Origin: Telmatocola sphagniphila
GTDB taxonomy: Bacteria > Planctomycetota > Planctomycetia > Gemmatales > Gemmataceae
Length of the DNA stretch: 32,000 nucleotides
Assembly: GCF_018398935.1 (NCBI RefSeq)
Contig: NZ_CP074694.1
Coordinates: 5,490,001-5,522,000 of the forward strand
Reading direction: 5' to 3'
Of the stretch, positions 1,756 through 28,696 are shown in pieces. How positions within the stretch are numbered: position 1 is the first letter of the stretch; each line of letters opens with the position of its first letter. The notes under the pieces were generated by a model. That model was not told the origin of the DNA, searched no databases, and saw only the letters and a list, made by a program, of their open reading frames with translations. A program made the translations under genes and the position numbers.

Positions 1756-1948
1756 CTCAAATTCCCAGCAATTCACTTACTATGCCCGTATTTTCCCGAT
1801 CTGAAAGGCCGATTTTAACGACCCAGACTGCCTAAATTTCCATTTTCAGCCCAAGATGCTCTTAAAAATAAAGTATACCTTAATTAACTTGGATCTTAAC
1901 GCAAACAAAGTTGGATTGTCCCACCCGAATCCTAAGTGAGTGGTGCCC

Positions 1949-4900
1949 ATGCCCCTTCGCCTTCTGCTGAGCTGTCTGCTGTTGGTGCTTTGGAATTTCC
2001 CGGCCCAGAGTCAAACCACCCATATCTGGAACAACGCCAGTTCCGGACTCTGGTCGGCCTCGGCGAACTGGCATCTGAACCTCGCCCCGAACGATCCGAT
2101 TCTTTCCATTGCCCGCTTTCAATCGCTCGGCTCGGGGATTGCTAATCAGGCCGGTCTGGGTTCCAGCAGCTTTTCGATTCTGGGTCTGGAACTCAACGGC
2201 AACTACTCCTGGTCGCTCGGTCAAAGCAGCGATTCGGGCGTTCTCAATCTCGGTTCCCGCGGATTATTACTCGATGCCGGCTCGACGAAAGCCGTCACAC
2301 TCAATTACCGGCTCAATCTCACGGACGATCAGAAATGGGACACCGCCGGGAGCACAGTCACTCATCTGGGAGCACTTTCCGGCAGTAACGCACTTACCAA
2401 AAGCGGTTTGGGAACTTTGGTACTCGATAACGCCAGCAATAGCTTCAGCGGTTCGATTTCCGTCGATGCCGGAACTCTGCAAATCGGTTCGAGCAGCAAC
2501 AACGCCGCGCAATTCGCTTTGCATGGCAACTCTGTCGACCTCGCTTCGGGGACCACTCTGGTGACCGCCGGTAGTTCCCCGAATTTGAATATCGGCCGTC
2601 TGAGTGGCAGCGGGGTCGTCAACCTGGCGAGTACGGGCATTCTGAACCTGTTCGCCTACGAAAATGGCGCGTTTTCGGGTTCCATTACCGCGTCGGGCGG
2701 TCTGTATATTCGCGGCACGAACACTCAGCAGGCTTTCACCGGTAACACCAGCGGCATCGGAGCCAGCACCAATATCCTGACGAGCGCCACGCTCGTTCTC
2801 GGCGGCTCGAATGCCACGAGTGGCACGCTCGCTTCCTCGACCATCAACGTACAGCAAGGTAGCTTGATTCTCGATAATTCCAGCTTTTCCGCCAATCGCA
2901 TTCCCGACACAGCCGCCATGAACCTCTATGGGGCTAATCTCACGCTCATCGGTAATAGCGCGGGAACCATCGAGACTATGGGAACCCTGACCTTGCTCAA
3001 TAGCGGACCGTCCAACATCCAGGTCATCCACAACGGCGGCAGCGGCGGAACCGAACTGAAATTTGCCAATTCCGGCACGCTGCGCGGAAGCTCGACGAGT
3101 ATGACCGTGAACTTCGTGGGCGTGGGCGGAACGCTCGGCAGTGAAGGAGCCAATCCTCGTATTTCGTTCGCCGGGGCGATGTACTTCTCCTCCGATACGG
3201 GCATGATCTCGAACTCGATGACGAGTCCCAGCTTTGGCTGGGGCACGGTCAATAACACGAGTTGGGCGGGGGTTAAACAGCTGTCCAACGGCAGTTACAC
3301 CGTCTATGCCCTGAGCGATACCCTGCGCACCGAACTCGATCTGGCCAATACTCCCGGCAATGAACGGGTGAGCTATACCCCCAATCCGCTGAGTAGTCCC
3401 TTGACGCTCACCAACAACTTGAAAACGGGGGCACTCAAAATCATTCCTTCTGCACCCGGGCAAAGTTTGAATTTGAATTCCGGCCTTTACCTCCAAACCA
3501 ATGCGCTGATGCTTGCCGGACCATACAGTTTCAGCATTAATGGGGGGTTGGGATCCTATTTGATGGAATCGGTGAATTTCCGCTATGTCTACGTTCTCGA
3601 TCCCTCGGCGGTACTTTCGATGAACGGCAACATGACGGCGGCCTTGCAGCCGGTCATTAAGACGGGGGCCGGCTTTCTGGAATTGAACGGCACCACCAGT
3701 CAGCTCGTTTTCAATGCCGGGCTGAACATCTTCCCGATCTGCGTCTCGCAGGGAGTGCTTCGCGGGACTCCCACTACGCTGGGCGGCGGGACATCTTCCA
3801 GTGGAATCCGATCGACTTATTTACTGGTGGGGGGCGTTCTGGAAATCAGTGGCGGCGGCACCTTCTCCCGGGCCGTCGGCGTGGACGGCACTGTTCTGGG
3901 AGGCGGCTTGCGCTTCGATAATGGCTCGACGATTCGGGGGGATGGGGGCTTCTCGGCGTACAACGGCAATGCCACAGTGACACTTGTGACGGCCATCGGC
4001 GGCACTACACCGGCGAATCTGGTCTGGAACGACGGTAAATTCCTGGCGGACGGTTACGCCTTTTTGCTCGGCTCGATCAAGGCCGATAGCCGTCTTGATT
4101 TCACAAACTCTATCGGTCTCGACAACGGCGCCTCCACCAATCCCTATAGCGTGCGCGAAATTCGGGTCGCCGATAATCCGAATTCTACCACCGATATCAT
4201 GCGACTCTCGGGCGTTATCTCCGGTTCCAAAAATTCCGATCTGCTGAAAACCGATGCCGGGACCCTCGAATTGACCGGGGCCAATACCTATGCGGGCAAC
4301 ACGATTGTCAAGGGCGGCACGCTCGTACTCAGCGGCAGCTACACCGGCGGCGGCAATTTCACGGTCAACGCCGGCGCCACGCTGCAGATCAATTCCAATT
4401 TCACCCTGAATAGTTCGATATCGGGCTCGGGCAACGTCGTGCTTTCCGGAAACAGCACGCTAACCGGAACAGGAGTGATCACCGGCCGCTTCACTTTACA
4501 GCCCGGTTCGACTCTCGCACCCACTGGCTTCGGTTCCCTGACGATGGGGAATGCTACCTGGATGGGCGGCAGTACATTCGTGCTGAACTACAACACGGCG
4601 GTCACCAGTCCGATTCCGAGCGTCGATAACTCCGTCGTCAAAGCGGTTAACGGCGCGATTCTCGATCTCAGCAATCTCAGTTCCAGCAACCGGATGAACC
4701 TGCAATTGAACGCGATTCCCGGCGGCAGCGGTTCCGATTCCTCGGTCGTTTACACCTTCGCACAATACCCGCAGATCCTCGGCTTAACGCCGGGGAATGT
4801 TTCGCAACTCTTCAACATCACGGGCAATTATTCCGGCACACCGCTGGTGTCCTACATCCATGCCAGTTCGGATATTCTCCAGGTTAGCTTCACCCCGGCG

Positions 4901-4987
4901 CCTGAACCGACCTCCCTTCTGCTAGGCGCCGCATTGGGTCTTGGACTCTGGCGATTTCGACGCAAGAAGGGGATCAAACTGAACTAA
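1949..4987 (+). CDS. PEP-CTERM-anchored autotransporter-associated beta-strand-repeat surface protein
   Basis: 1012-1015 aa ORF with an alternative GTG start at 1940. The N-terminal signal peptide is MPLRLLLSCLLLVLWNFPAQSQ. The body is Gly/Ser/Thr/Asn-rich with recurring 'GTLxLxGxNxYxGxTxVxGGTLxL'-type repeats, for example DAGTLELTGANTYAGNTIVKGGTLVLSGS. The C-terminus PAPEPTSLLLGAALGLGLWRFRRKK is a PEP motif followed by a TM helix and a basic tail. Confidence 0.85.
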   Translation: MPLRLLLSCLLLVLWNFPAQSQTTHIWNNASSGLWSASANWHLNLAPNDPILSIARFQSLGSGIANQAGLGSSSFSILGLELNGNYSWSLGQSSDSGVLNLGSRGLLLDAGSTKAVTLNYRLNLTDDQKWDTAGSTVTHLGALSGSNALTKSGLGTLVLDNASNSFSGSISVDAGTLQIGSSSNNAAQFALHGNSVDLASGTTLVTAGSSPNLNIGRLSGSGVVNLASTGILNLFAYENGAFSGSITASGGLYIRGTNTQQAFTGNTSGIGASTNILTSATLVLGGSNATSGTLASSTINVQQGSLILDNSSFSANRIPDTAAMNLYGANLTLIGNSAGTIETMGTLTLLNSGPSNIQVIHNGGSGGTELKFANSGTLRGSSTSMTVNFVGVGGTLGSEGANPRISFAGAMYFSSDTGMISNSMTSPSFGWGTVNNTSWAGVKQLSNGSYTVYALSDTLRTELDLANTPGNERVSYTPNPLSSPLTLTNNLKTGALKIIPSAPGQSLNLNSGLYLQTNALMLAGPYSFSINGGLGSYLMESVNFRYVYVLDPSAVLSMNGNMTAALQPVIKTGAGFLELNGTTSQLVFNAGLNIFPICVSQGVLRGTPTTLGGGTSSSGIRSTYLLVGGVLEISGGGTFSRAVGVDGTVLGGGLRFDNGSTIRGDGGFSAYNGNATVTLVTAIGGTTPANLVWNDGKFLADGYAFLLGSIKADSRLDFTNSIGLDNGASTNPYSVREIRVADNPNSTTDIMRLSGVISGSKNSDLLKTDAGTLELTGANTYAGNTIVKGGTLVLSGSYTGGGNFTVNAGATLQINSNFTLNSSISGSGNVVLSGNSTLTGTGVITGRFTLQPGSTLAPTGFGSLTMGNATWMGGSTFVLNYNTAVTSPIPSVDNSVVKAVNGAILDLSNLSSSNRMNLQLNAIPGGSGSDSSVVYTFAQYPQILGLTPGNVSQLFNITGNYSGTPLVSYIHASSDILQVSFTPAPEPTSLLLGAALGLGLWRFRRKKGIKLN

Positions 4988-11084: not shown

Positions 11085-11534
11085 TTACCAGATGCCCTGA
11101 ACGCGACTGAGAAAAATGCAGAGTACACGAGTCGCTTCGCGCATGTCGACAGGCACGACAAACTTAGTGCGTTCGTGAACCAGAATATTCCGATATTCTC
11201 GAACTTTATGAACTGCTTCCGCATCGGCCTGAGGTATCCGGCAACGATCCCGAACGCGGTTAATCAGCGGTTCCGTGCCTCTGGGTTTACGGATGTGAAA
11301 TGCTCGTATGAAGTGTTGAAGAGCGGTCTCAAATTCCGAGAAGATTCGAACGATATAGGTACCTTCCAGATGGGATGAGGCAGTGACGATATCTCTGCGA
11401 ATTATGCGATTTCCCAAGATCGCTGGATTAACAGTCATTTCCTCGAGTAGACGATCAGTTACAAAACGGATTGCACCATACTCGCGTTCCACGGCTTTGA
11501 TCCGCGTCATCCAGTCAAATGCTTCATTCAGCAT
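11085..11534 (-). CDS. HEPN-like protein (RNxxxH motif), second gene of a two-gene module
   Basis: 149 aa. The C-terminal third contains VHKVREYRNILVHERTKF, an R-x4-H motif of the HEPN type in the 'RNxxxH' flavour. An earlier acidic helix reads LEGTYIVRIFSEFETALQHF. The start ATG lies inside the last codons of the upstream gene, within the sequence ATGCTGAATGA. Confidence 0.5.
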   Translation of the reverse strand: MLNEAFDWMTRIKAVEREYGAIRFVTDRLLEEMTVNPAILGNRIIRRDIVTASSHLEGTYIVRIFSEFETALQHFIRAFHIRKPRGTEPLINRVRDRCRIPQADAEAVHKVREYRNILVHERTKFVVPVDMREATRVLCIFLSRVQGIW

Positions 11535-12189
11535 GGGCTTTCATCTCATCGAAGACCTTTCGAAGGCTTTCTTTCGTCAAAGGTTTTGCCTCTTCCTCGC
11601 GGGCTTTACCGTTATTGGAAGCTCTTTTGAATAGATAGTGGATGTGCCAGCGATTGTTATAAAAGTATAAATTGGCAATATCGTCGTAAGAAGGCATTAA
11701 GTAAAGGTCGACGACGCCTTCCGCACCCGGCGCGGTGCGCGCAATGGGCTCCAGAAACAGGCGAACTGTTTCATGCTGAAGCAGCAGTCCCGGAGCTTTG
11801 TAATTCCCGAGCTCCGCATCTTCGATTTTTTTATCCACTGTTTTAGTGGCCCAATCGAGTTCCTGAGCCCAATTCTTTACCGTCGCCACAAGCTTCCTGA
11901 GCTTCTCAAGCCACTCGAGTCTAATGCTGATTTTCTGCCGGGCGGCTGCCTCCAGCTCTCTCTGCGTTGATTCTTGTACAGGTCGATTAATCCATTTGAA
12001 ATTCGTTTCATTGGCATGATTCTGAACGGATACGATATACTGAGGCATCGCCTCCACAGTGGCCTTTTCAGTAGACGTGGGCCGAACCGCCTTAGGCACA
12101 AATGTGAATCGGAGTGCCCCATTCGTATCGGGATCCTCCAAAATATTCACACTGTACGAAGCTGCTTGCGTCGCGCTATTCTTCGCCAT
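11524..12189 (-). CDS. Hypothetical protein (221 aa), first gene of the HEPN-like module
   Basis: ATG at 12189 is preceded by a GAGGG Shine-Dalgarno-like sequence; the ORF track begins one codon earlier at GTG 12192. I recognise no domain. A central segment, RELEAAARQKISIRLEWLEKLRKLVATVKNWAQELD, looks like a coiled coil. It overlaps the downstream gene by 11 nt. Confidence 0.6.
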   Translation of the reverse strand: MAKNSATQAASYSVNILEDPDTNGALRFTFVPKAVRPTSTEKATVEAMPQYIVSVQNHANETNFKWINRPVQESTQRELEAAARQKISIRLEWLEKLRKLVATVKNWAQELDWATKTVDKKIEDAELGNYKAPGLLLQHETVRLFLEPIARTAPGAEGVVDLYLMPSYDDIANLYFYNNRWHIHYLFKRASNNGKAREEEAKPLTKESLRKVFDEMKAHAE

Positions 12190-12535
12190 CACACCCTCAG
12201 TCCAATGCCACTTCTGAAAACGACAATTCCGAAATCAAATGATTCCCTAACCAGTTGCTGTCCAAGTATTATAACCGATTTTCACATCGACGAAAGACGG
12301 TGTCCGAAGGAGGAGATTATGTGGGCAATCGGGCTCTCAAATCGAGCATTTTTCTCGAAGCTTCCCGCGATTTTGATTGCGATAACGACCAGATCGGCGA
12401 CAATCGCCTGGGAGGATGCTCCCTTGCCGATCACCAAAAATTTTCCCCCTTCTTGTCGATTTCCTTTCCCATCGTTCGACTAAACCAGGAACAGCGGGCA
12501 GATCGCCCGTGCAACGACTCGAATTTGGAGAAGCT

Positions 12536-12880
12536 ATGCCGCAGTTTCTGGTTGCAATTCACCATCCCGATGGCTACGAACCCTCCGCGGAGGATGAAGC
12601 GATGCATCGCGATATCGACGTGCTGAACGAGGCGATGATTGCCGCGGGTATCCGCGTTTTCGTCGGCGGCCTGCGCCCAGCTCCGGAGGCAAGGTCGCTC
12701 CGGGCTCAAACCGGCGGTAAAGTCCTCGTCACCGATGGGCCTTACCTGGAAACCAAAGAGCACATCGGCGGCTTCTGGGTGCTGGAACTCCCCAATATGA
12801 AAGAAGCCCTGGAGTGGGGCAAGAAGGCCGTGCTCGCCTGTCGAGCACAGGTCGAGGTGCGGGAATTTTACTCGATGTAA
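12536..12880 (+). CDS. YCII-related (DGPF-motif) domain protein
   Basis: 114 aa from ATG 12536; the track's 12416 start adds 40 implausible residues. It contains VTDGPYLETKEHIGGFWVLELPNMKEALEWGKK, the classic YCII/DGPF block. Confidence 0.85.
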   Translation: MPQFLVAIHHPDGYEPSAEDEAMHRDIDVLNEAMIAAGIRVFVGGLRPAPEARSLRAQTGGKVLVTDGPYLETKEHIGGFWVLELPNMKEALEWGKKAVLACRAQVEVREFYSM

Positions 12881-13020: not shown

Positions 13021-13401
13021 ATGAGATTTATTAGCGTTATGACAGGCAATGCAGCGAATCGTCTGCCGAACCAGATCGAGATGTCCTCCATGCACAAACT
13101 CATTGTGGCAGGTATGACGGCGGGTTGGCTGATCGAGTGCGAAGGGGTGACGTTTGGCACCCAAGGTGTCCGCGTTCATAAAGATCCCGCCGGCAAAATC
13201 ACAGTCACCGATGGCCCTTTCGCGGAAACGAAAGAAGTGCTCGGCGGCTACGCACTACTGAAAGCCGATAGTATGGAGGAAGCCGTTGGCTATACTCGGC
13301 AATTTCTCGAACATGTCGGCCAGGGAACCGGCGAGGGATTTTGGGAGGGCACTTGGGAGACTTATCAACTGTTTGAAATGCCGGTGGAAGAAGTTAAGTA
13401 G
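13021..13401 (+). CDS. YCII-related (DGPF-motif) domain protein, second divergent copy
   Basis: 126 aa containing ITVTDGPFAETKEVLGGYALLKADSMEEAVGYTRQF. Confidence 0.85.
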   Translation: MRFISVMTGNAANRLPNQIEMSSMHKLIVAGMTAGWLIECEGVTFGTQGVRVHKDPAGKITVTDGPFAETKEVLGGYALLKADSMEEAVGYTRQFLEHVGQGTGEGFWEGTWETYQLFEMPVEEVK

Positions 13402-14178: not shown

Positions 14179-14540
14179 AGTTACCTTGGCATTGTTCGAG
14201 CGACATTTTTTTGAAGCTAATCTGACGGTGAAAAAGTCGATGGTTTCTTCATTTCAGGAACAAGCTTCCAGGTTCAGTTAAGGTTTTTATTCTTAAGGAT
14301 CATTCGTGATCGAATCGGAGACGAGTCGATGGAACTCCTTACCTGACAAAGTGATACACGGTTTAAATCTTGTTCCAGTCTATTTACGAGATATAATTCA
14401 GTTCAGCAAAGTCATTGTTACCACAGTTCTTTCGACCGATGTCCTGGCTCTGATGAATTCGTCTATGACAATCGGAAAGATCGAATGATTGGCACAGTAA
14501 GACAATTTTCCGGCAGCGATTTTTGATTGGTTGAGATTTG

Positions 14541-15272
14541 ATGGCCCATTTTGACGATTATCACCGAACAGTGGTCGGTTACCATGGTACTAGTATTTCT
14601 TCGGCGTTGCGAATTGTAAATCGAGTTGAGAACTTCCGTCAGAGCGAAAGGGATTACGACTGGTTGGGAAGAGGGATCTATTTCTGGGAATATGGACCGA
14701 AACAGGCTCTGAATTTCGCGAGAATTCGTCAAAGGCAAGCGATAAATAAGAAGCATAAAACCTCGGGAGATCTCCGAAGAGCTACCGAACCTTTGGCCGT
14801 GGTTGCTTGCATGATACGGCTGGGATTTTGTCTAGACTTAACTGAACCTGAAAATGTAGAATATCTTGTAGCTATTTTCGATTCCTACAGGGAGTCGATG
14901 GAACTCGCTGGTGCTGAATTGCCCAAGAATCGGCATAAATACCGAAAGTTGGACTGTGCAATTTTCGAGTATGCCTACAAGGTCATCGAAGATTCCGAGT
15001 CCAATTTAACAATAGATACGGCCCGAGGCATCTATGTTCCTAGAGATGGAACCACTCGTATATGGCCGGGTAGCTGGATCTCTCGGGATACTCACATCCA
15101 GCTCTGTGTACGAAATCCGGCAAATTTGCTTGGAACATGGCTCCATTATCCGACCGGATTGGGGGTGAAGAATGTCTGTGAAGCGTTACAAGCTGGCGTT
15201 GCCGACCTCAAGTCAGAAGATTCGCAAAGCGAAAGCGAAGTTGAAGGGGATGAGTCAGCTCCGGAGAATTGA
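14541..15272 (+). CDS. Orphan protein with an H-Y-[EDQ] ADP-ribosyltransferase-fold-like (DUF3990-like) motif order and an acidic C-terminal tail
   Basis: 243 aa from ATG 14541. The ordered motifs are VVGYHGTS, then WLGRGIYFWEY, then THIQLCVRNP. The tail is SEDSQSESEVEGDESAPEN. G+C is lower than in the flanking genes. The functional call is tentative. Confidence 0.4.
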   Translation: MAHFDDYHRTVVGYHGTSISSALRIVNRVENFRQSERDYDWLGRGIYFWEYGPKQALNFARIRQRQAINKKHKTSGDLRRATEPLAVVACMIRLGFCLDLTEPENVEYLVAIFDSYRESMELAGAELPKNRHKYRKLDCAIFEYAYKVIEDSESNLTIDTARGIYVPRDGTTRIWPGSWISRDTHIQLCVRNPANLLGTWLHYPTGLGVKNVCEALQAGVADLKSEDSQSESEVEGDESAPEN

Positions 15273-17162: not shown

Positions 17163-18389
17163 GTGAACAGCGTTTTCCTTGCTGCCGCGGTAGTGCTGTC
17201 GATTCAGCCGATTCGAATCGAGCTCAAACAAAAAGCGACGTCGTTAGTGAAGCAGCTCGGGGATGGTTCTTTTCGCAAAAGAGAATCGGCGAGCAAGGAT
17301 CTAATCGTTCTGGGACTGAATTCCCGGGAAGCTCTGGAGGCTGGGGCAAAGAGTAGCGATCCGGAAATCCAGCAGCGTTGTAAATTACTGCGGGTCGAGA
17401 TGGAGAAGATGGAGTTGAATCGCCGGATTCGACAGTTCACGACCGACCCGATGGTTTCTCTGCCGGGCTGGAAAACGTTCAGCGAGAAATTCGGGTCCGA
17501 TGCATTGACCCGAAAAGTTTACGGACAGATGGCGGAGGTGGGAGGGGAACGGTTCGTATACTATGAAAGCGAGCCAGAAGGAGCGGCACGATTTTTTATT
17601 TCTGAATATCAGCGCCTTTCAGGAGAATTACGCAATTTAGACTATGATTTTAAGAAATTGATAGATGATAGAATAATATTGTTTTCAATATTATTCTATA
17701 TACTTCAATTAGAGAAAATGGAAGATCAAATTTCTCGTTCGGACCTATCCATTGTATTTAGTCTCGATTCAATGCCGATTACTCATTTAATACAGGGCGA
17801 GGCGCTGAAAATATTGTTGAGAGATAAACCGGAATCTCCAGTCTTCAAAAAGATTCTTCTGGGTTGGATGGGAAAAATTACAAACGACATAGCAATTCAA
17901 AGTTTGGGATACGATTTTGAATTATGTTTGATTCTTAATTCGCTAAGGGATAACAAATTGGATGAGGGAACAGAAATTATAAAAAAACTGTTAAAAGATC
18001 CCCGATTCGTAAAACAAAAAACTCAGACGAAAGGGTATGTTCTTCACGCTTTCGCAAACTTCGCTAAAAAACAAGACCTAAAAATATTTGAATCCTTTCT
18101 GAACGACGATTCTCGCACGACCGATCATCTCCTCGGAAATAACGGAAATCCCATTCAGTATCAGATTCAAACTCGCGATATTGCACTCGCTGCGGTTCTC
18201 CATTTAAATGGAGAAAAAATCGAGGATTATGGCTTCGATGGCTGGCGATTTGCCGACCAAGACGGAATAAACAATTCCATTGAGGTATTCAGTTTCATAA
18301 CCGAAGAAAACCGCAAAAAAGCCTTCCAGAAGTGGTACGATCTGAAAGAGAAGAAGGCCAAGGAATCGGCGCCAATGCCGAAGAAGTGA
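17163..18389 (+). CDS. Hypothetical protein, helical-repeat-like, with a sharply AT-rich central portion
   Basis: 408 aa with a GTG start preceded by GGGAG. It has a hydrophobic N-terminus, then LVKQLGDGSFRKRESASKDLIVLGLNSREALEAGAKSSDPEIQQRCKLL. I recognise no catalytic motif. Confidence 0.6.
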   Translation: MNSVFLAAAVVLSIQPIRIELKQKATSLVKQLGDGSFRKRESASKDLIVLGLNSREALEAGAKSSDPEIQQRCKLLRVEMEKMELNRRIRQFTTDPMVSLPGWKTFSEKFGSDALTRKVYGQMAEVGGERFVYYESEPEGAARFFISEYQRLSGELRNLDYDFKKLIDDRIILFSILFYILQLEKMEDQISRSDLSIVFSLDSMPITHLIQGEALKILLRDKPESPVFKKILLGWMGKITNDIAIQSLGYDFELCLILNSLRDNKLDEGTEIIKKLLKDPRFVKQKTQTKGYVLHAFANFAKKQDLKIFESFLNDDSRTTDHLLGNNGNPIQYQIQTRDIALAAVLHLNGEKIEDYGFDGWRFADQDGINNSIEVFSFITEENRKKAFQKWYDLKEKKAKESAPMPKK

Positions 18390-19201: not shown

Positions 19202-22200
19202 TCAAACTGACCTCTTTTTTCTCTTGTTTTGTCCGATTACCATCAGTCCCATTCCAGAGCCGATGAGCATCAGAAATCCCGGCTCTGGAACAGCAATGAA
19301 ATTCAAATAAATATCTCCATTGCTATCGCCCGTTACGGTCAGTTCGTATTGAGAGCTGGAGATATTGGTGGTTGTAAATTGAGTTTGGTTGGTAATGTCG
19401 AGACTCGACACATTCCCGGCTCCTTGAGCAATCAGGTAGCTGTAACTGTTGGGAAACTTCAGGCTTACCGAGCTGGCATCAACATTGAAAGTCGTTCCGC
19501 TGCTGATGGAAGTCGTTCCGCCGGTAATATAGATAAAATTGTTATGAGTGGGATAGGGTAGCGATCCCAGATCGGTACTCCCGCCCGTATTCGCAGAAGC
19601 GGCCGTGCTGGCATCAGCGATCTTGATTCCAACGATGGCACCCGAGGAAAGGGTCAGGCCGTTGCCGAGATTCAATGTACCGACGGCAAGTGCGCCGATA
19701 TCTCCATTACCCGGCGTAATCGCGCCGCCGGAAGCCACCGAAACCGGTCCGGCTATCATCCCCGTGCCACTCAACGTGCCGGGGTTGTTCACTTTAATCT
19801 GCAGGGTTGAAGTGGTGGAACCCACCGCGCTGGCCACCCTCAATTCTCCCGAGTTAATATTGATACTGGCATTAGTGTCGCCATCCAGATAACCGGGCTG
19901 GGTCAAAGTCAGAATTCCCAGTCCATTTTTATTGAACCCAAAATTACCGTAAACTCCCAGTGGACTATTCAAGGTCGCATTGAAGCCATTGGTATTGATG
20001 ATTCCCGTGGCGTTTGCCATCACAACGACCTGCCGGGAAGTCGTCCAGTTGGTATTGAGTACGATTCCCGCATCATTTTGACTTTCGATGGCTATTTGCG
20101 GTGCGTTACCGAGTGCGGCGTCCGAACTGATCCACAGTGAGCCTTCGTAGATTCTAATCGGTCCCGAGAAAGTATTGTTCGTATTGGTAAGCATAATTCC
20201 GCCGGATAAAGCTTGTGTGGCATAAATAGACAATCCCCCGGAGCCAGAGATGACTCCACTCAAGGTCAGAACGGGTCCTGAAAAATTCCGGCCATCCGTG
20301 CGTATGGAACTGTATCCGGAATTGAGCGTGATATTCGAACTTAAAGTTATGCTCGATGCTCCGGTATCGTCCCATAATCCCGCGGGTTGAAATAAACTGT
20401 AATAGGAACTTCCGTTCCCGGAATTCAATGCGATCGAAGTGGGATTTCCCAGGGCTGAGAGTGCCATGAAGGAAACGAAACCCGAATTGACGGTCAACGG
20501 ACCACCGATATTGTTGGCCGTATTGCTGAGGTAGAGCGTACCCGGCCCAGATTTGGTCAATCCATTCGCATTAGAAATGATCCCGGATACCAGCATATCA
20601 TTCTGCACGAAAAATTGGGCTTCACGCCCGTTAAAATCGAGAGTTGCCGTGGATGCAACCTGCGTCGATCCGGAGCCATTCTGAAGAAAGAGCACGACTC
20701 CGCTTTTCACCTGCAAAGTGCCGGTCCCCAAAATTTGCGAATCATTCATCGTTAATGAATTGATGGACGTGGGACTCGAACCGAGAGTGAGAGAAGAGGT
20801 GAGCAAGACATTATCGTACGTCGAAGCTCCAATCGTAACGCTCGCGGCGTATTCCGAGGACGCCAGGGGCCGAATGCCCGTGCTCCCATAGGTCACTAAG
20901 CTTGGAGTGGCGCTTCTCTGATTTCCGACCTGCGTTTGAGCGATGGCATAAGGAAGAATCGAGATGGTTGTAGTCCCGGCTGCTCCGCCCCCGCCCAGCA
21001 AGTCGGAAGTGGGTGCGGTGCTGAAGTAAATATTGGCGACACCCGCACCGGGCGCATCACCAAAACTCGAACTATTTCCTTCAAATAAAATGGTACCCCG
21101 TTGTGCGGAGCGTGAAAGACTTGCAAAGGTGAGAGTGGTTCCCGTGTTACCGGTTTGAGAGGCATCCACAGACACCACGGAATCCCCACTAATTGTCAAA
21201 GCTCCTGCCACCTGTTGGGTTCCAGTTTGATATCCCCCGATGAGGTTGAACGAAGCGCCCGACAGCGATACGGGGGTTGTCGAGGTGATTCGATTATTAT
21301 TGTTATTGGCGGCACTGGAATTGCCGTTAATATCGATGGCATTATTAAACGTAACGGATCCACCGGCATTCAATTGTATTCCCGAGGAATTCAAAATCGT
21401 GGCGTTGGGTCCCACTAAATAAATATCACCGAGAGCTCCTCCTCTGGGTTGCCCAGCGGTGGGACAAATTGCGGAGCCAAGTGGTCCCTGGAAGGTGTTT
21501 GTTCCGTAAAGAGTGAGCGTGCCGTAACCAATCGCATCTGTAATGATCACTCCTCCATTACCGGAAAGCACGCCGGACATCAGGAAACCACCCGGATTAT
21601 TTCGATCGCCGCCGTAATAGAAATTGGCGTTTAGAGTGAAGTTGTTTGGAAGTGCGGTACTCGCTCCATCCGAGACGAAAGTGCCTCCATTCACAATGAC
21701 GTTCCCAGTCGAAAGAGAATTGGAATCTCTAATTCGAATATTCCCTGCTTGAATGATAATGGAACCGTTTCCGCTGGCTCCGGAAGCGGTGTTGAGATTA
21801 GAAAAAGTCGTGAAACCCAAGTTTTGGTAGTTGGTAGGTCGATCAACCGTGACTGTCGCACCGAAGGTCGCCCAGGCGATATCTATCTCACCGGTACCGC
21901 TTCCAGCGATGGTTGTAGCCGCGGAAAAATTGGCATAGTTCAGATTCACCAATCCATAACTATTCATGTTGACTTGAGCATTGCTTCCACTGAACTTAAT
22001 GGTGTTGACGCTCGAGTCGCTGGAATTTCCCGTATTAATTGAAATCGTTCCCCCGATACCGGAAAAATTCATCTGGTTGGTCTGAAAGTTATTTCCCAGA
22101 TTGTTGAGAGTGTTATAACCCGTGGTATCTCCATTCGGATTCGAGAAATTGAGGATGACCGAGGACCCACCTCCGGAGGGTGGAACGCCTCCTGACCAAC

Positions 22201-22321
22201 TTCCGGCACTCCAGTTGGTAGTACTGCTGGGAGTATAGGGCCCTTCCCAAGTATAAGTTTGACAGTAGGCTTCTGAACTCAAATGTAAACACGTAAAAAG
22301 ACAGATCATAAATCGAAACAT
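19202..22321 (-). CDS. PEP-CTERM-anchored autotransporter-associated beta-strand-repeat surface protein
   Basis: 1039 aa. The signal peptide is MFRFMICLFTCLHLSSEAYCQ. The body is a G/S/T/N-rich beta-strand-repeat region, for example LTKSGPGTLYLSNTANNIGGPLTVNSGFV. The C-terminus is VPEPGFLMLIGSGMGLMVIGQNKRKKRSV. Confidence 0.85.
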   Translation of the reverse strand: MFRFMICLFTCLHLSSEAYCQTYTWEGPYTPSSTTNWSAGSWSGGVPPSGGGSSVILNFSNPNGDTTGYNTLNNLGNNFQTNQMNFSGIGGTISINTGNSSDSSVNTIKFSGSNAQVNMNSYGLVNLNYANFSAATTIAGSGTGEIDIAWATFGATVTVDRPTNYQNLGFTTFSNLNTASGASGNGSIIIQAGNIRIRDSNSLSTGNVIVNGGTFVSDGASTALPNNFTLNANFYYGGDRNNPGGFLMSGVLSGNGGVIITDAIGYGTLTLYGTNTFQGPLGSAICPTAGQPRGGALGDIYLVGPNATILNSSGIQLNAGGSVTFNNAIDINGNSSAANNNNNRITSTTPVSLSGASFNLIGGYQTGTQQVAGALTISGDSVVSVDASQTGNTGTTLTFASLSRSAQRGTILFEGNSSSFGDAPGAGVANIYFSTAPTSDLLGGGGAAGTTTISILPYAIAQTQVGNQRSATPSLVTYGSTGIRPLASSEYAASVTIGASTYDNVLLTSSLTLGSSPTSINSLTMNDSQILGTGTLQVKSGVVLFLQNGSGSTQVASTATLDFNGREAQFFVQNDMLVSGIISNANGLTKSGPGTLYLSNTANNIGGPLTVNSGFVSFMALSALGNPTSIALNSGNGSSYYSLFQPAGLWDDTGASSITLSSNITLNSGYSSIRTDGRNFSGPVLTLSGVISGSGGLSIYATQALSGGIMLTNTNNTFSGPIRIYEGSLWISSDAALGNAPQIAIESQNDAGIVLNTNWTTSRQVVVMANATGIINTNGFNATLNSPLGVYGNFGFNKNGLGILTLTQPGYLDGDTNASININSGELRVASAVGSTTSTLQIKVNNPGTLSGTGMIAGPVSVASGGAITPGNGDIGALAVGTLNLGNGLTLSSGAIVGIKIADASTAASANTGGSTDLGSLPYPTHNNFIYITGGTTSISSGTTFNVDASSVSLKFPNSYSYLIAQGAGNVSSLDITNQTQFTTTNISSSQYELTVTGDSNGDIYLNFIAVPEPGFLMLIGSGMGLMVIGQNKRKKRSV

Positions 22322-22748
22322 GAGTCGGCCCCGATCTTCCCGGAATTTCGTGAAAATAAAATAAACGGAATTCGCATTCTGCCAAAATGAAAATCGATTA
22401 AAAACAGCGCTCCAAGCTGATCGAGTTCCAAATGTAACGAGGAGAAATGATTAAGAAATCTTTTGGAATTATTTGTAAGTAATAATGCTCTCAGAATTGA
22501 TTAAATATTATTGAAAAATAATACTTAAGTGCGTTGTTGGTGCAATGTTATTTAGATTTCAATCCTCCAGGCTGAGACAACTCGAGAAGCGTCCGCGCAT
22601 CCCCCATCCCCTACAGCCGGTTTTACCGGCTTCTCACCCAGCCAATCTCTGCTCTGCAAGATAAGCCTCATTTGAGCAGTAGTGCCCCTGTCGGCTAATC
22701 TGAAGGAAACGATTTCCCAGACTTCTGACCTTTGTTCAAGAGTTTCCC

Positions 22749-23150
22749 ATGAAAAAGTCACTGGTGTTGATGACTCTGCTATTTTTCGGTTCGTTTGCCC
22801 GGGCTCAGGAACCAGTCCTGGGCTCGAATTCATTGTCCGGCAGTTGGACAGGCACCTGGCTCAGTACCGACTCCGGCCATAAAGGTCCGTTGAAGGCCGA
22901 GCTGATCGACCAGGGCAACGGCGCTTATCAGGCCAAGTTTCGTGGGCGTTTTTTCGCAGTCATCCCGTTTCGCTACAACGTCACGCTGAACGTGGTGCAA
23001 CAGAATGGCAATCAAACGACGCTGGCCGGTTCTTCCCGGCTGCCGTTCTTCGGAACCTTCCAGTACTCCGCCGTTTCGGATGGCCAGAGCTTGAACGCCG
23101 AGTACACTTCGCGAAGCGACCACGGGCAATTTCAGTTGAGGAGGAGATAG
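22749..23150 (+). CDS. Small secreted hypothetical protein (133 aa)
   Basis: It has the signal peptide MKKSLVLMTLLFFGSFARAQE followed by a beta-rich body. Its 3' 209 nt are duplicated at 26596-26804. Confidence 0.7.
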   Translation: MKKSLVLMTLLFFGSFARAQEPVLGSNSLSGSWTGTWLSTDSGHKGPLKAELIDQGNGAYQAKFRGRFFAVIPFRYNVTLNVVQQNGNQTTLAGSSRLPFFGTFQYSAVSDGQSLNAEYTSRSDHGQFQLRRR

Positions 23151-23412
23151 GGGGCAATTTTCCACGCCGCCTTTTTGGATTGTCTTCGAAAAATTCAAAA
23201 ATCGAATCCGGGCTTTTTACGAAGTTCGAATAATTCTGGATAACTGGCATGAATTGCCAGCGAATATTGTGAAGTTTATGACGAAATGGCCAACGATTTC
23301 AGTCTCACCATACAAGTAGTTATTTCAGTGTATTGAGTGCTTTGGTAGCATTTTTTCTAATTTCTTCTGGATAAGATTCGCTCGTGAATTCTTTGCACAT
23401 TTTTTTAAATTC
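22942..23412. repeat. 471-nt direct repeat, copy 1
   Basis: It aligns to 26596-27066 at a constant offset of 3654 nt, and I count 9 mismatches. It covers the 3' part of the 133-aa gene, the spacer, and the last 31 codons of the minus-strand paralog. Confidence 0.95.
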
Positions 23413-23479
23413 GTTTAGATTATTCTTTTTTTTGCTGCATTCCATAATATAGGGCAGATAGAAGGATACTTGCACTAGG
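23320..23479 (-). pseudogene. Detached 3' fragment of paralog A, separated from its body by the IS insertion
   Basis: The reverse strand reads ...LVQVSFYLPYIMECSKKKNNLNEFKKMCKEFTSESYPEEIRKNATKALNTLK*. This is colinear with the C-terminus of paralog B (...YLPYISTSSINKIYYPEFKKMCKEFTSESYPEEIRKNANKALNTLK*). Confidence 0.85.
23474..23479. repeat. Target-site duplication ACTAGG, left copy
   Basis: The identical hexamer abuts the other IS end at 25336-25341. Confidence 0.7.
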
Positions 23480-25335
23480 CCTTAAAACAGCGTAGTTTTT
23501 TGGGGAATTGTTTCGATTTATCGAAGAAAGCTCGAAATCCTTTTTGTTTTCTGCGGTTTGTGTAAGTAACCGCTTAACAAATCGACAGTCGCAAAAAGGA
23601 GTTTCGAGTGAATGTTATTTTCGGACGTTGGTTTCAAAAATGCAAGAGTCGAATCGAACGTCGCCTGGCTAAGCGAGAGGCCGCGATGACCTTCGCTCCT
23701 TCTTTCGACGCCTCCAACATTCATTACGAAGTCTCCGAACGCGTGGGGGCGATCAGTTGCGGAGGCCTCGGGGCCATGCACCTTCTGGCCCGGCGTATCG
23801 GACTGATCGACGACATCGACGAGAAGCTGCATCTGCTCCAATTTCAAAGGCCTTACTCGGAATCGGACCACGTGTTGGCCATCGCTTACAATTCCCTTTG
23901 CGGGGGTACCTGCCTGCAAGACATGGAACTGCGTCGCACGGACGAAAACTTTCTCAACGCCTTGGGCACTCAGCGTTTTCCCGACCCGACTACTTCGGGC
24001 GACTTTTGTCGACGCTTCGATAGTGGCAGCATCCAGGCTTTGATCGACGCTTTCAACCAGACCCGTTTACGCGTCTGGTCGAAGCAACCCGATTCCTTTT
24101 GGGAATGCGCGAAGATCGACGCCGACGGCAGCTTTACCCAAACGCGTGGCGAGCGTAAAGCGGGGATGGACATCAACTATAACAGAGACTGGTGTTACCA
24201 CCCCCTGGCGGTGACCCTGGCCAACACCGGTGAGACGCTGAGCATCGTCAACCGTCCCGGCAATCGCCCTTCGCACGAAGGGGCCGCGGTCGAACTCGAC
24301 CGGGCTCTTTTGCTGTGCCTTCAAGCGGGCTTTCGCAGGATCGTCTTTCGCGGCGACACCGATTTCTCGCAGACCACTCGCCTCGACGGCTGGGATGCCA
24401 ACGCCAAGGTACGCTTTTATTTCGGCTACGATTCGAAGCAAAACCTCGAAGCAATCGCGGAAAAACTGCCGGAAGCGGCTTGGCACAAGCTCGAGCTGTC
24501 CCGCGCAATACTCGGCGAAAGCGAAGTTGCGACACCGACGGGAAAACACCAAGGAGCGGATCGTCCAAGAGCGGGAATTCGTAAATGTGAAGTTGATCTC
24601 CGAAGCGGTGGCCGAGTTCGAGTACCAACCGACCGCTTGCCGAAGGGCGTATCGCCTGGTGGTGATTCGCAAGAATCTTTCCGTGGAAAAAGGCGAATCC
24701 GTTCTGTATCCGGACGAACGCTATTTCTTCTACATCACCAACGACCGGGAGTGCACGGCCGCCGAAGTCGTCTACGAAGCCAACGATCGCTGCAATCAGG
24801 AAAATCTGATAAGCGCAGCTCAAGGGCGGTTGCCGGGCCTTGCACGCGCCGCTGCACGATCTGGAAAGCAATTGGGCGTACATGGTGATGGCCTCCCTGG
24901 CCTGGAACTTGAAAGCCTGGTGGGCCTTGACGTTGCCGGAAACTCCTGGTCGCTGGCGGGAAAAGCATCGGGACCAGAAGCAGTCGGTTTTGAAAATGGA
25001 ATTCAAAACCTTCCTCAATGCTTTCATGCTTCTGCCTTGTCAGATCGTCCGGAAGGCCGGCCGCATCGTCTATCGATTGCTCGGCTGGAACCCGCACTTG
25101 CCAATCTTCTTCCGACTACTGAAAGCACTGAGGTGCTGATCGTTCGACCGACTGAAGTCGGGATCCGGATGTCCCGATCCGATAAAACGCCGAGAGCTAT
25201 TCGCGGAAAGGAAGAATGTTTGAAAAATAGAAGTATGCGTTCGGCCGAGCGAAAAGCTCCGGCGTGGGGGACTCATCGAACTATCTCGCTAAAACTCCCC
25301 ACGGAATTGGCATCAAAAACTTCGCTTGTTTGAGG
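23480..25335 (+). mobile_element. IS1380-family-like insertion sequence (1856 bp)
   Basis: The terminal inverted repeats are CCTTAAAACAGCGTAGTTTTT (23480-23500) and the reverse complement of 25315-25335, CCTCAAACAAGCGAAGTTTTT; they match at 17 of 21 positions. ACTAGG direct repeats flank the element. It holds a single DDE transposase reading region. It interrupts an ORF whose two halves rejoin in frame. Confidence 0.85.
23608..25139 (+). pseudogene. IS1380-family (DDE_Tnp_1-like) transposase, disrupted by two +1 frameshifts
   Basis: Three consecutive frames carry the protein. Frame 1 runs from GTG 23608 to ...EAAWHKLE at about 24497. The next frame reads PAQYSAKAKLRHRRENTKERIVQEREFVNVKLISEAVAEFEYQP...YFFYITNDRECTAAEVVYEANDRCNQENLI to about 24810. 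The third frame reads AQLKGGCRALHAPLHDLESNWAYMVMASLAWNLKAWW...LLKALRC*. The sequence after each shift in the old frame is Arg-rich nonsense. Confidence 0.8.
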
Positions 25336-26345
25336 ACTAGGGGCGGGTACACAAATTTTTTATCCGTTTGATATAAATACCGATAAAGTTTTACTATGAA
25401 TTCGAGGTCAAAATCCATCGTAAAGACGCTACTGTTTTTATTGTGAGGATACTTAATGAGAGTCCACTTACCTTCACCTAGACTTGACGAAAATTTGCGC
25501 AGTTGAGATTGATCATATTCATTCTGACGATGCAAGGTATTTGCATAACAAAAAATTCTAATCTCTGAACTTGACCACTTTTTACCCATATTATTAGTCA
25601 TATATTCGTTAAGGAAATAAAAAGTGAAAGGATGAGATTTCGAACATGATTCAATAATATCTATGTAATTATCTTTAGAGGGCTGATTTAGGAAGTATTT
25701 CCAACGAGTGATGGACCATGTTGAGATATAATAATTATCTGAACCGATACCAGTTTTGAGCAATTCTAATTTGTTTCGTACGTTCGAGCAGGAGAATCTT
25801 GTAAGAAAATCCACAAAGGGGTTCACTTGACTTGAGACAATTAGATTGTCCTGCTCTTGAGTCTTATCATCGAAAAAGGTAGGGTACGGGCATATTGGGC
25901 ACCAAAGCTTTGACAGTTCATTTTTGGTAGTGATAGCAGAAACTTCCCCTTCAATATTCTCATTATTTTCTTTTATGAAAAAAATTCCGTAACCTCCGAT
26001 ATGAGGGTTTTTAATATACTCGATTCGAGAAGGATTATAATCGTATTTTGATATATCTGCGAAAAAAAAGGGGATTGTAGCAGTAAATGCTCGAACAATA
26101 AATTGTTTGTTTTGATATTTTCGATCACCTATCAAAACCTTCTCAACAATCAAAGTGCTTTTAAAAGTGCATGAAAGGTCGACTCTGCTGTACAGTTCAT
26201 CGTTTGGACGATCCGTTTGTCGATAGAATCTATCTGAAACCGTCAAGTATCTCCCAAGGACTAAAGTGACATCGGTTGGTATAATTTGCACAATATTACT
26301 AAAGAAAAGTATGAAGCAAGATTTTGCTAAAACTGTTGACAACAT
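25281..26345 (-). CDS. Paralog A of an unrecognised AT-rich protein family, 3'-truncated by the IS insertion (last 17 codons read into the IS)
   Basis: 354-aa ORF. It is colinear with paralog B, with roughly half the positions identical by eye. Shared blocks include VLGRYxxVSDR, DLSCTFKSTL, FIVRAF, AITTxNELxKxWCPIxPYP, YFLNE, GKWT and YLYQxDKxFxYPP. The tail LKQAKFLMPIPWGVLAR is encoded by IS sequence (25281-25335). Confidence 0.75.
   Translation of the reverse strand: MLSTVLAKSCFILFFSNIVQIIPTDVTLVLGRYLTVSDRFYRQTDRPNDELYSRVDLSCTFKSTLIVEKVLIGDRKYQNKQFIVRAFTATIPFFFADISKYDYNPSRIEYIKNPHIGGYGIFFIKENNENIEGEVSAITTKNELSKLWCPICPYPTFFDDKTQEQDNLIVSSQVNPFVDFLTRFSCSNVRNKLELLKTGIGSDNYYISTWSITRWKYFLNQPSKDNYIDIIESCSKSHPFTFYFLNEYMTNNMGKKWSSSEIRIFCYANTLHRQNEYDQSQLRKFSSSLGEGKWTLIKYPHNKNSSVFTMDFDLEFIVKLYRYLYQTDKKFVYPPLVLKQAKFLMPIPWGVLAR
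25336..25341. repeat. Target-site duplication ACTAGG, right copy
   Basis: It is identical to 23474-23479 and lies immediately outside the right inverted repeat. Confidence 0.7.
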
Positions 26346-26393
26346 AGGTTTTGTGTCTCGCTTTCTTTGAACTTCAAAATACCTAATTTAGTT

Positions 26394-26401
26394 GTGCCAT
26401 G
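26394..26401 (-). promoter_or_regulatory. Conserved upstream block (CATGGCAC on the coding strand), 49-56 nt before the paralog A start
   Basis: The same octamer sits at the same distance upstream of paralog B (28183-28190). A second shared block, TTTCTTT, lies 17-23 nt upstream of both starts. The surrounding sequence is diverged. Confidence 0.3.
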
Positions 26402-26595
26402 TTTTCAAAAGAACAACTGATGTAATGCGATTGCTGGCTTGGCATGAGTTGCCACTTAATTATTGTCATACAACAAAATTAAAGATGCGAAAAGATATTT
26501 TTGGAAATAGACAAATTACTGTATCCATCAGAGAGTGAACAAATCGATAAAGACGCTCTATTAACTCTGACTATGGCTATTTAGAATATTATACT

Positions 26596-26804
26596 GTGAG
26601 CGTTTTTTCGCAGTCATCCCGTTTCGCTACAACGTCACGCTGAACGTGGTGCAACAGAATGGCAATCAAACGACGCTGGCCGGTTCTTCCCGGCTGCCGT
26701 TCTTCGGAACCTTCCAGTACTCCGCCGTTTCGGATGGCCAGAGCTTGAACGCCGAGTACACTTCGCGAAGCGACCGTGGTCAATTCCAATTGAGGAGGAG
26801 ATAG
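26596..26804 (+). pseudogene. 5'-truncated duplicate of the 133-aa secreted-protein gene (last 68 codons only)
   Basis: It reads ...RFFAVIPFRYNVTLNVVQQNGNQTTLAGSSRLPFFGTFQYSAVSDGQSLNAEYTSRSDRGQFQLRRR*. An in-frame TGA lies at 26568-26570, and there is no ATG/GTG/TTG between that stop and the homology start. Confidence 0.85.
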
Positions 26805-27066
26805 GGGGCAATTTTCCACGCCGCCTTTTTGGATTGTCTTCGAAAAATTCAAAAATCGAATCCGGGCTTTTTACGAAGTTCGAATAATTCTGGATAACTG
26901 GCATGAATTGCCAGCGAATATTGTGAAGTTTTTGACGAAATGGCCAACGATTTCAGTCTCACCATACAAGTAGTTATTTCAGTGTATTGAGTGCTTTGTT
27001 AGCATTTTTTCTAATTTCTTCTGGATAAGATTCGCTCGTGAATTCTTTGCACATTTTTTTGAATTC
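26596..27066. repeat. 471-nt direct repeat, copy 2
   Basis: See copy 1. Confidence 0.95.
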
Positions 27067-28134
27067 AGGATAATAAATTTTATTGATACTACTTGTCGAT
27101 ATATAAGGCAAATATTCAGCCATCTGAATCACCGGGGGATATTTAAATTGTTTATCAACTTGATATAAATAGTGGTAAAACTTTATTACGTAGTCAAGAT
27201 CAAATTCCATGGAATAAGTGCTACTAGCTTTGTCAGGCGGAAATGTAACATGAGTCCACTTTCCTGACCCAATGCTATGCAGATATTTTCTAATCTCAGT
27301 TTGATCGCATTTTTCCTTTCTGTGGAGTGTGGCGATTTGGGATAAAACTCTAATATCGGATTTAGTCCATCGCTCTTTCGCTTGATTTGTGAGAAATTCA
27401 TTCAAAAAATAATATGTATGTGAATGCGCGGATGATAAGTTATTGATTACATCTTTGTAATTGTCCATACAAATATTATTTAGGAAGAACTTACGTTTTT
27501 CAATTGACCAACATGCTATGTAGAGATTTTGTGAAGTAGTTCCAGCTAATATCATTTCTAATCTGGATCTTAAATTTGAAGTAGAGTATTTTTTGACATG
27601 CTCTACGAAAGGTAGTAACTGACTTGATAAAATAATTTGAGCTTCATCTCTCGCTTTTTCATTAAATGCAATCGGGTACGGCAATATTGGACACCAAATT
27701 TTAAAAAGTTCATTTTCCGTCGTTATTGCTGAAATTTCATCACTTATACCTTCATTATTATCTTGCAGATAGAAAAGTCCGAGATCACCGATTTCGGGAT
27801 TCGAATCATACTTTAGTCGTAGAGGTTCATATATATATCTTGCGCTTGATCGGAATGTAGGACTCGTATTTGAGAATGCCCTAACTATGAAATTGCAATT
27901 TTGAAATTTAATATTTCCGGACAATATTTTATCAACTACAAGAGTACTTTTAAACGTACATGACAAATCAATCTTGGTATAAAGTGCATCTTGCGGACGA
28001 TCTGATCGCCTTTCAATTCTATCTGATACTTTTACATATCTCCCAAGAACAAATGTGACATTATTTGGAATGACTTGTAAAAACGTAGAAAAGAAAACTA
28101 TCAAATCAATTTTTATAATTGTAATCGATGCCAT
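26974..28134 (-). CDS. Paralog B of the unrecognised AT-rich protein family (intact, 386 aa)
   Basis: A long ORF in about 28% G+C DNA (hand count on one line). It has a short hydrophobic N-terminus, MASITIIKIDLIVFFSTFLQVIP. I recognise no domain. It is a paralog of 25281..26345. Confidence 0.75.
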   Translation of the reverse strand: MASITIIKIDLIVFFSTFLQVIPNNVTFVLGRYVKVSDRIERRSDRPQDALYTKIDLSCTFKSTLVVDKILSGNIKFQNCNFIVRAFSNTSPTFRSSARYIYEPLRLKYDSNPEIGDLGLFYLQDNNEGISDEISAITTENELFKIWCPILPYPIAFNEKARDEAQIILSSQLLPFVEHVKKYSTSNLRSRLEMILAGTTSQNLYIACWSIEKRKFFLNNICMDNYKDVINNLSSAHSHTYYFLNEFLTNQAKERWTKSDIRVLSQIATLHRKEKCDQTEIRKYLHSIGSGKWTHVTFPPDKASSTYSMEFDLDYVIKFYHYLYQVDKQFKYPPVIQMAEYLPYISTSSINKIYYPEFKKMCKEFTSESYPEEIRKNANKALNTLK

Positions 28135-28182
28135 GATGTAACTTACCAGATTTCTTTAAATATATCTGGGCATACTGTTTAA

Positions 28183-28190
28183 GTGCCATG
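28183..28190 (-). promoter_or_regulatory. Conserved upstream block (CATGGCAC on the coding strand), 49-56 nt before the paralog B start
   Basis: It matches 26394-26401 in sequence and spacing. Confidence 0.3.
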
Positions 28191-28342
28191 AAAAGCGCGT
28201 TCAATTTTGCACGTCAATTAGACCACAATGGAGTAGTATTATCATCCAAGATATTTGGTAAGTCAACAAAAAAAGTAGAGATTTTCACCAATTAAGAGTT
28301 CAGAAGCGTGAGAGCTTATTTTTGCTTTACTACCTCAAAAGT

Positions 28343-28371
28343 AAGATTTCAGCTCGTTGAACTGAAATCTT
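28343..28371. terminator. Perfect 10-bp stem hairpin (AAGATTTCAG-N9-CTGAAATCTT) with T-rich flanks on both strands
   Basis: The stem halves are 28343-28352 and 28362-28371. It is followed by CTATTTTG on the plus strand and by ACTTTTGAGG on the minus strand. It lies 36 nt downstream of the stop of the 62-aa minus-strand ORF and about 210 nt upstream of paralog B. Confidence 0.3.
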
Positions 28372-28406
28372 CTATTTTGCCCATTTGGTGACTCAATCTC
28401 GCTATT

Positions 28407-28595
28407 TTATCTGGCAGTCGTTAGTCTGGAAAAGATAGGTAATGGACTCCGCAGAATAGATAAGGCCAGTTCAACAGGGTGAACAATTACCCTCAAAAAA
28501 CTGCCATACTTTTCTGATTCCAAGGCATCGACATTCGTTCCATCGCTTCTGACAGCATATTCTCTAGATTTACCTATTTGCAAATTTATTTTCAA
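28407..28595 (-). CDS. Small hypothetical ORF (62 aa) at the right edge of the AT-rich islet
   Basis: The only support is the ORF itself and the downstream hairpin. There is no recognisable motif and no clear ribosome-binding site. Confidence 0.2.
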   Translation of the reverse strand: MKINLQIGKSREYAVRSDGTNVDALESEKYGSFLRVIVHPVELALSILRSPLPIFSRLTTAR

Positions 28596-28696
28596 ATCTA
28601 TCGTTAATCGCTCTACCCAACTAAAATATCCCCCTCCCGGCGGCGTCTCTATAACAGGGTTAGTGACCGAATCACAACCCCCGAGAGGTATTCATC

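Follow-up and report, generated by a model that had tools for sequence, protein, structure and literature searches.

Several described systems produce or maintain near-identical tracts beside diverged genes. The orphan module arrays of polymorphic toxin systems (cdiA-CT/cdiI, and rhs-CT with its immunity genes) consist of tandem, divergent modules with a short conserved segment for homologous exchange, and partial concerted evolution by gene conversion is known from pairs such as tufA/tufB. Templated or microhomology-driven segmental duplication (RecA-independent tandem duplication, or synthesis-dependent break repair followed by microhomology end joining) and Campbell-type integration by a single crossover, which forms merodiploids, are further routes to such an arrangement. 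The locus described here, a 471-nt direct repeat that frames one of two diverged paralogs (A and B) in the genome of the bog bacterium Telmatocola sphagniphila SP2, resembles each of these in part. It lies in a window of 32,000 nt (contig NZ_CP074694.1, positions 5,490,001 to 5,522,000), and all positions given below are those of the window. With microhomology-driven duplication the locus shares a 3-nt junction, a truncated copy of a neighbouring gene and young direct repeats, but the duplicated flank sits here behind two genes that differ by 48%, and therefore a second, in-register exchange between old paralogs is needed. Campbell-type integration would likewise leave the insert framed by direct repeats, beside a copy of the adjacent gene that lacks its start, but no circle, vector, donor lineage or integrase is evident, and the junction of the would-be circle is illegitimate. 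The toxin arrays offer stacked divergent modules with a conserved segment, and a close relative holds an Imm33 immunity gene at the same site; the conserved segment here, in contrast, is 3′-terminal and consists in part of non-coding DNA and of a fragment of a foreign gene, and no toxin, immunity or other domain was detected in A or B. As in tufA/tufB, a near-identical, in-register tract lies inside diverged paralogs, but here it runs 374 nt past the gene into non-paralogous DNA, and the base composition suggests that the divergence took place elsewhere. The repeat is a recent scar of recombination within an islet of foreign DNA that contains two orphan paralogs; the kind of event is known, its place is new, and as it stands the outcome is an ordinary structural variant. 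We tentatively propose, with a probability of roughly 0.4, that a single recent event of recombination or repair in this lineage produced the repeat by copying the 3′ flank of A to a position behind B.

A BLASTN comparison of the window with itself, which the initial annotation had asked for, returned a single strong non-trivial match, gap-free over 471 nt, between 22942-23412 (copy 1) and 26596-27066 (copy 2). Together with a position-by-position comparison, it gave an offset of 3654 nt and nine mismatches (22945, 23122, 23123, 23126, 23132, 23135, 23278, 23345 and 23407), corresponding to 98.1% identity or 1.9% divergence; the coordinates, length, offset and mismatch count of the initial annotation are thus exact. 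Copy 1 comprises codons 66-133 (the last 205-209 nt) of a 133-aa gene, a 169-nt spacer (23151-23319; 41% GC) and the final 30 codons of paralog A with their stop, which is the content already described (the end of the 133-aa gene, a convergent spacer and the end of a minus-strand gene). The intact 133-aa gene (22749-23150, plus strand) has a signal-peptide-like N-terminus and a GC content of 56%, and is a native planctomycete gene. In copy 2 it is represented by a start-less 3′ fragment (26596-26804, plus strand; codons 66-133 and the stop, with a patch of five substitutions at 26776-26789), a real feature that had been noticed before and that marks a recombination junction. Both edges of the repeat are sharp. 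Unbroken identity begins at 22946, the preceding GTG at 22942-22944 being a 3-nt microhomology; beyond the left edge the sequences are unrelated, and beyond the right edge they are about 58% identical. The offset of 3654 nt includes an insertion sequence of the IS1380 family, overlooked in the initial annotation, which with one target duplication accounts for 1862 nt; without these the spacing is 1792 nt, which is the length of the original unit (3654 = 1792 + 1862). The spacer folds no better than shuffled sequences (z-score -0.77), and terminator and promoter scans of it found nothing above background.

An assembly artefact, in which a single locus or two culture variants had been wrongly expanded into a tandem, would also yield such a repeat. 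Two short-read Logan contigs from SRR14506984, L003 and L002, agree with the window at 100% identity, over lengths of 13,774 and 3,540 nt (17.3 kb in all). L003 ends at 22975, that is 22945 + 30, the last position of the last k-mer (k = 31) that holds the distinguishing base 22945. Because this is where a k = 31 de Bruijn graph of a true two-copy repeat predicts the contig to stop, its end provides read-level support for a second left context merging at 22946 and makes an artefact unlikely. A mixture of variants would instead branch at 23122, a single-copy locus would not branch at 22946, and the bodies of the two paralogs, at 52% identity, are not collapsible alleles. The copies of the insertion sequence transposase in the genome differ by indels, which hint at imperfect polishing of repeats, but overall we regard an artefact as highly improbable. 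The other contig, L002, which carries DinB and ABC genes, starts at 28461 in the AT-rich region upstream of B, where the window shows no repeat that would account for the break; its cause may be a drop in coverage, a variant in the culture or a further copy located elsewhere in the genome.

Paralog A is present in two pieces on the minus strand, a 3′ piece at 23320-23479 (160 nt; 52 codons and the stop) and a 5′ piece at 25342-26345 (334 codons; 35% GC). Deletion of 23480-25341, joining 23479 to 25342, restores an in-frame gene of 387 aa, which aligns end to end, with one gap, to the intact paralog B (26974-28134, minus strand; 386 aa; 33% GC). The two proteins are 52% identical, and their last 30 residues differ at one position. 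This agrees with the identity of about 50% estimated in the initial annotation, and its description of the DNA as unalignable mostly stands: identity ranges from 43 to 70% in 60-nt windows, although BLASTN does align two patches at 65-69%. In the 355 codons that have diverged, the first, second and third positions show identities of 0.61, 0.73 and 0.42; dN is 0.41, and dS is saturated and so not computable. With identity lowest at third codon positions and dS saturated, A and B are real coding genes and old paralogs under purifying selection. The GC content at third codon positions (GC3) of the pair is 0.27-0.34. The region upstream of A (26346-26595; 33% GC) extends to the illegitimate junction, beyond which lies the truncated copy of the neighbour gene. 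It shares no homology with the AT-rich region upstream of B (28135-28659; Smith-Waterman score 12, against 10.8 ± 1.3 in shuffles). A promoter-like match on the minus strand at 26588-26617 (ATGACT, 18 nt, TATAAT; 10/12, a match to the consensus only) straddles this illegitimate junction; the -10 element belongs to the DNA upstream of A, and the -35 element to the truncated piece of the neighbour gene. Upstream of B, a perfect hairpin with a 9-bp stem (AGATTTCAG ... CTGAAATCT) occupies 28345-28371. It lies between an open reading frame (ORF) of 62 aa on the minus strand (28407-28595) and, at 28266-28238, the site that most resembles a promoter for B.

The element that splits A is an IS1380-family insertion sequence of 1856 bp (23480-25335, plus strand), with terminal inverted repeats that begin with CC and a 6-bp target-site duplication, ACTAGG, at 23474-23479 and 25336-25341. 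Its inverted arms (23475-23500 and 25315-25340) are 26 nt long and 81% complementary. The transposase matches Pfam PF13701 (DDE_Tnp_1_4) above the cut-off (E 2.1e-17) and NCBIfam NF033539 (IS1380) with an E-value of 5.3e-45 and 153.8 bits; the latter score falls short of the 180-bit equivalog threshold, as the in-frame part covers no more than profile positions 9-261. The DDE transposase of the IS1380 type, the terminal inverted repeats starting with CC and the short target duplication are all as in the family. The differences are that the transposase frame of this copy is broken, its homology being spread over the ORFs 23608-24888, 24395-25333 and 24840-25139, and that the duplication is of 6 bp, where members of the family usually produce 4-5 bp. 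Two other transposases on the same 6.59-Mb chromosome are at least 90% identical to it. The other copies of the transposase in the genome (with products of 574 aa and 352 aa) differ by indels, which could reflect either decaying copies or imperfectly polished repeats. The element sits 67 nt past copy 1 of the repeat and forms a GC-rich block within A, which has no defect besides it. Its insertion inactivated A, leaving B as the only intact member of the family. The perfect 6-bp duplication and the ORF restored on excision rule out one-ended, ISEcp1-like mobilisation of A by the element. Recombination between the two 471-nt copies, which have the same orientation, can still remove A and the insertion sequence as one loop.

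Homologs of the 133-aa gene place the locus in its genomic context. At the species level the closest is in Zavarzinella formosa (58% identity), where no synteny with the locus was found, and further homologs with 42-49% identity occur in metagenome-assembled genomes of Pirellulaceae. A 97%-identical ortholog (four amino acid differences) is present on two metagenome contigs, L009 (JGI) and L010 (ENA), which match the window at 98% from 22268 to 23151, their homology reaching a single base beyond the stop of the 133-aa gene. In the place of A and B, both contigs carry an Imm33/DUF2185 gene on the plus strand (L009:965-1195 and L010:820-1026), 80 nt past the 133-aa gene and absent from the window; among the 77 homologs of this environmental Imm33 protein there was no annotated Telmatocola protein. 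The site behind the 133-aa gene thus carries different cargo in different lineages. As these 98%-identical relatives lose homology at 23151 and hold Imm33 instead, the spacer is strain-specific along with both paralogs, and forms the first part of the islet rather than the backbone. On the right side, homology to the ENA contig L011 (97.6%) sets in at 28660, and the right edge of the islet lies at some point within the upstream region of B. The GC content is 0.41 in the spacer and 0.30-0.375 in the tail, A, B and the upstream regions, compared with 0.56 in the neighbour gene and 0.49-0.56 in the backbone. Judged by alignment and composition, the region from 23152 to approximately 28600, spacer included, is a small strain-specific foreign islet in T. 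sphagniphila.

We propose the following order of events, in which both the sequence of steps and the use of a template on the same chromosome are what we infer from the present arrangement. A and B would have split from each other in the distant past, in a genome rich in AT, and they most likely entered the present one as a unit, in tandem and on the same strand. A break between A and B would then have been repaired with the 3′ end of A as template, copying having begun in register at the boundary between the paralog tail and body (27066|27067) and run leftwards for 471 nt, taking in the last 30 codons of A, the spacer and, from the neighbouring host gene, 205 nt. The copied tract would have been sealed to the upstream region of A at the 3-nt microhomology GTG (26595|26596); the same outcome would be expected from a tandem duplication at the microhomology and a subsequent in-register deletion. 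B would thereby have gained the tail and 3′ flank of A, with the start-less piece of the neighbour gene left between the paralogs. Afterwards, a few point changes and one short recombination patch would have accumulated, and the later insertion of the IS1380-family element in A, with its 6-bp duplication, would have extended the repeat spacing from 1792 to 3654 nt.

The two edges of the repeat are of different kinds. At the left edge, DNA from upstream of A meets the middle of the neighbour gene, and as the two share no more than GTG, the join is illegitimate. The right edge lies at one and the same codon in A and B, and is therefore a homology-guided exchange. The differences between the copies are unevenly spread, with none in the first 176 nt of the repeat and eight in the remaining 291 nt (p 0.027), and we count this in favour of the proposed event. 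As 205 nt of native DNA with 56% GC are part of the duplicated block, the block was made in this lineage or a close one. The split of A from B, in contrast, must predate residence here, because the genes keep a GC content of 33-35% despite their saturated synonymous divergence; this argument is based on the established principle of amelioration. Two independent arrivals are unlikely because the family is seen nowhere else, and, since A and B are same-strand neighbours of equal composition, an old tandem pair was probably transferred together. The initial annotation had argued that the repeat is younger than the paralogs and that a simple old tandem duplication cannot explain it, and the contrast between 1.9% divergence and saturated synonymous sites upholds this.

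A number of observations weigh against the proposed event. Five of the nine differences between the copies cluster within 14 nt (p 0.0002), and with L010 as the outgroup these five changes lie on copy 2, the dead fragment, where the patch reads CGT-GGT-CAA-TTC-CAA. Four of the five are at third codon positions of the 133-aa frame, and the fifth changes a His codon to Arg, a residue found in two of four homologs. The pattern looks like a functional allele of another lineage rather than drift in a dead fragment, although as evidence it is weak, and it obliges our model to accommodate an extra imported patch; a later short import into copy 2 can also explain it. The flank itself points in the same direction. 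Between SP2 and L010 there are four differences in 531 nt upstream of the repeat and 10 in 210 nt inside it (p 0.0009), and all 10 are common to both SP2 copies (seven are synonymous, one replaces Thr by Ile, and the remaining two share a codon in which Val becomes Ile). The flank beside the islet has therefore been exchanged between lineages, and inter-lineage recombination is active here. The divergence step at 22825-22958, which contains the left edge of the repeat at 22946, was discarded as evidence; it covers 134 of 741 nt, and such a coincidence has a chance of about 18%. In addition, no intermediate or ancestral arrangement was observed.

Some of these observations can be accommodated by the Campbell-type capture that the initial annotation had put forward. 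In this scenario, a sister Telmatocola lineage would have carried the order 133-aa gene, spacer, tail and A, and a circularised or tandem fragment of its DNA (22946-26595) would have entered by a single crossover in the shared 471 nt into a resident locus with the same gene, spacer and tail followed by B. A single crossover would account for every part of the layout, the truncated neighbour-gene copy among them, and direct repeats framing an insert next to a truncated flanking gene are indeed what the locus contains. The differences between the copies resemble between-lineage divergence, with their clustered third-position patch and a His-to-Arg change towards the family consensus; their 1.9% divergence is on the scale of that between SP2 and its environmental relatives (0.75-4.8%), and the recombination signature in the flank (p 0.0009) fits as well. 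The patch is weak evidence, however, and capture is no better supported than an event within the chromosome. Capture moreover requires a second lineage with the other family member and the same site and tail. None was found in the collections searched, nor was any copy of the spacer or tail, and the known close relatives have Imm33 at the site; the missing donor molecule or lineage with an alternative allele and the same flank is weak evidence at strain level. It would not dispense with the illegitimate step, which is still required for the 26595|22946 junction, nor with an earlier in-register exchange through which A and B came to share their tail. The layout that suggested capture is thus as had been described, but the donor lineage and allele pool that it implies were not found in these collections, and we consider this origin rather unlikely, though less so than the one treated next.

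The other option in the initial annotation was homogenisation of the 3′ flank by gene conversion. Under long-term concerted evolution, an old tandem duplication that included the neighbour-gene fragment would have had its 471 nt kept identical by repeated conversion, which agrees with the right edge being in register between the paralogs, as in conversion tracts, and with a left edge that coincides with the end of possible homology. The duplication would have to be as old as the paralogs and made in the present genome, and the composition of the locus speaks against that combination. The native DNA of 56% GC in the block indicates that the duplication occurred in this lineage, but A and B, with saturated dS, still have 33-35% GC and a GC3 of 0.27-0.34, against 49-56% GC for the backbone in the window. 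The upstream regions of A and B share no homology, and 98%-identical relatives lack the whole islet, which is therefore recent here. Homogenisation is therefore disfavoured, and we hold long-term concerted evolution to be very unlikely.

A and B constitute an orphan protein family. Neither protein had a match in Pfam, NCBIfam, PADLOC or PDB sequences, and PHROGs gave non-significant matches only (best E 0.11); across these five resources no toxin or immunity domain was detected in A or B. A word-indexed search of 5.8 billion protein clusters returned only the query itself, and an exhaustive HMMER profile search of 1.84 billion representatives returned only the fragment of A. No A/B relative was found among GTDB genomes (a representative set of which the source genome is not a member), IMG/VR, plasmids or phages, the last two searched by tblastn, and two exact-match metagenome scans, with a 27-mer from the spacer and a 28-mer from the tail, gave no match. 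The AlphaFold2 model had a mean pLDDT of 36.7, which made it unusable. The suggestion of the initial annotation that allelic variants of this family are stacked by capture found no allele pool in any collection searched, and when relatives were compared for single-paralog versions with A-like or B-like alleles, as it had advised, L009 and L010 were found to carry the unrelated Imm33 gene at the site. The locus is not yet evidence for an allele-stacking system. A broader version of the idea, which we regard as doubtful and speculative, is that Gemmataceae of peat bogs may have a hot spot of recombination at the site behind the 133-aa gene, where lineages would swap cargo (Imm33, or the orphan pair) and divergent members of the family would be stacked by homology-driven capture via the conserved 3′ tail and spacer, in a 3′-anchored analogue of orphan toxin/immunity arrays. 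An integron gene-cassette array was rejected on the grounds that no integrase or recombinase is among the window ORFs scanned, the spacer shows no unusual folding (z -0.77) and the repeat includes part of a host gene.

Other features of the window lie outside the islet. Two proteins of about 1000 aa with autotransporter-type PATR repeats are encoded at 1940-4987 and 19202-22321, the second gene being directly upstream of the 133-aa gene on the opposite strand. On the minus strand at 11085-12192 there are two overlapping small ORFs, the downstream one weakly similar to HepT-like ribonucleases (E 6e-4), and they may form a toxin-antitoxin pair. A 63-nt direct repeat with 75% identity (12711-12773 and 13187-13249) is found where the annotation of the Logan contig L003 has two adjacent YCII-domain genes, and is consistent with an older tandem duplication. 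At 14538-15272, in a region of lower GC content, a 244-aa ORF has a weak, sub-cut-off match to the catalytic (ADP-ribosyltransferase) domain of exotoxin A (E 5e-4). The 408-aa ORF at 17163-18389 has no Pfam or NCBIfam match, has a relative of at least 90% identity on a Logan contig (P0017), and contains a stretch of 36% GC (17501-18000) and a 32-nt near-palindrome (17668-17699).

The locus offers a clean, datable case of a genome reshuffling newly acquired foreign genes. Within 6 kb, a junction at a microhomology is combined with an in-register exchange between the old paralogs, one of which an insertion sequence has since knocked out. The family to which A and B belong has no relative among about 15 billion predicted proteins, and it occupies a site at which close relatives hold an immunity-type gene. 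If more Telmatocola genomes were to show alternative cargo with the same 3′ anchor, the locus would provide a testable model of homology-driven gene capture in Planctomycetota.

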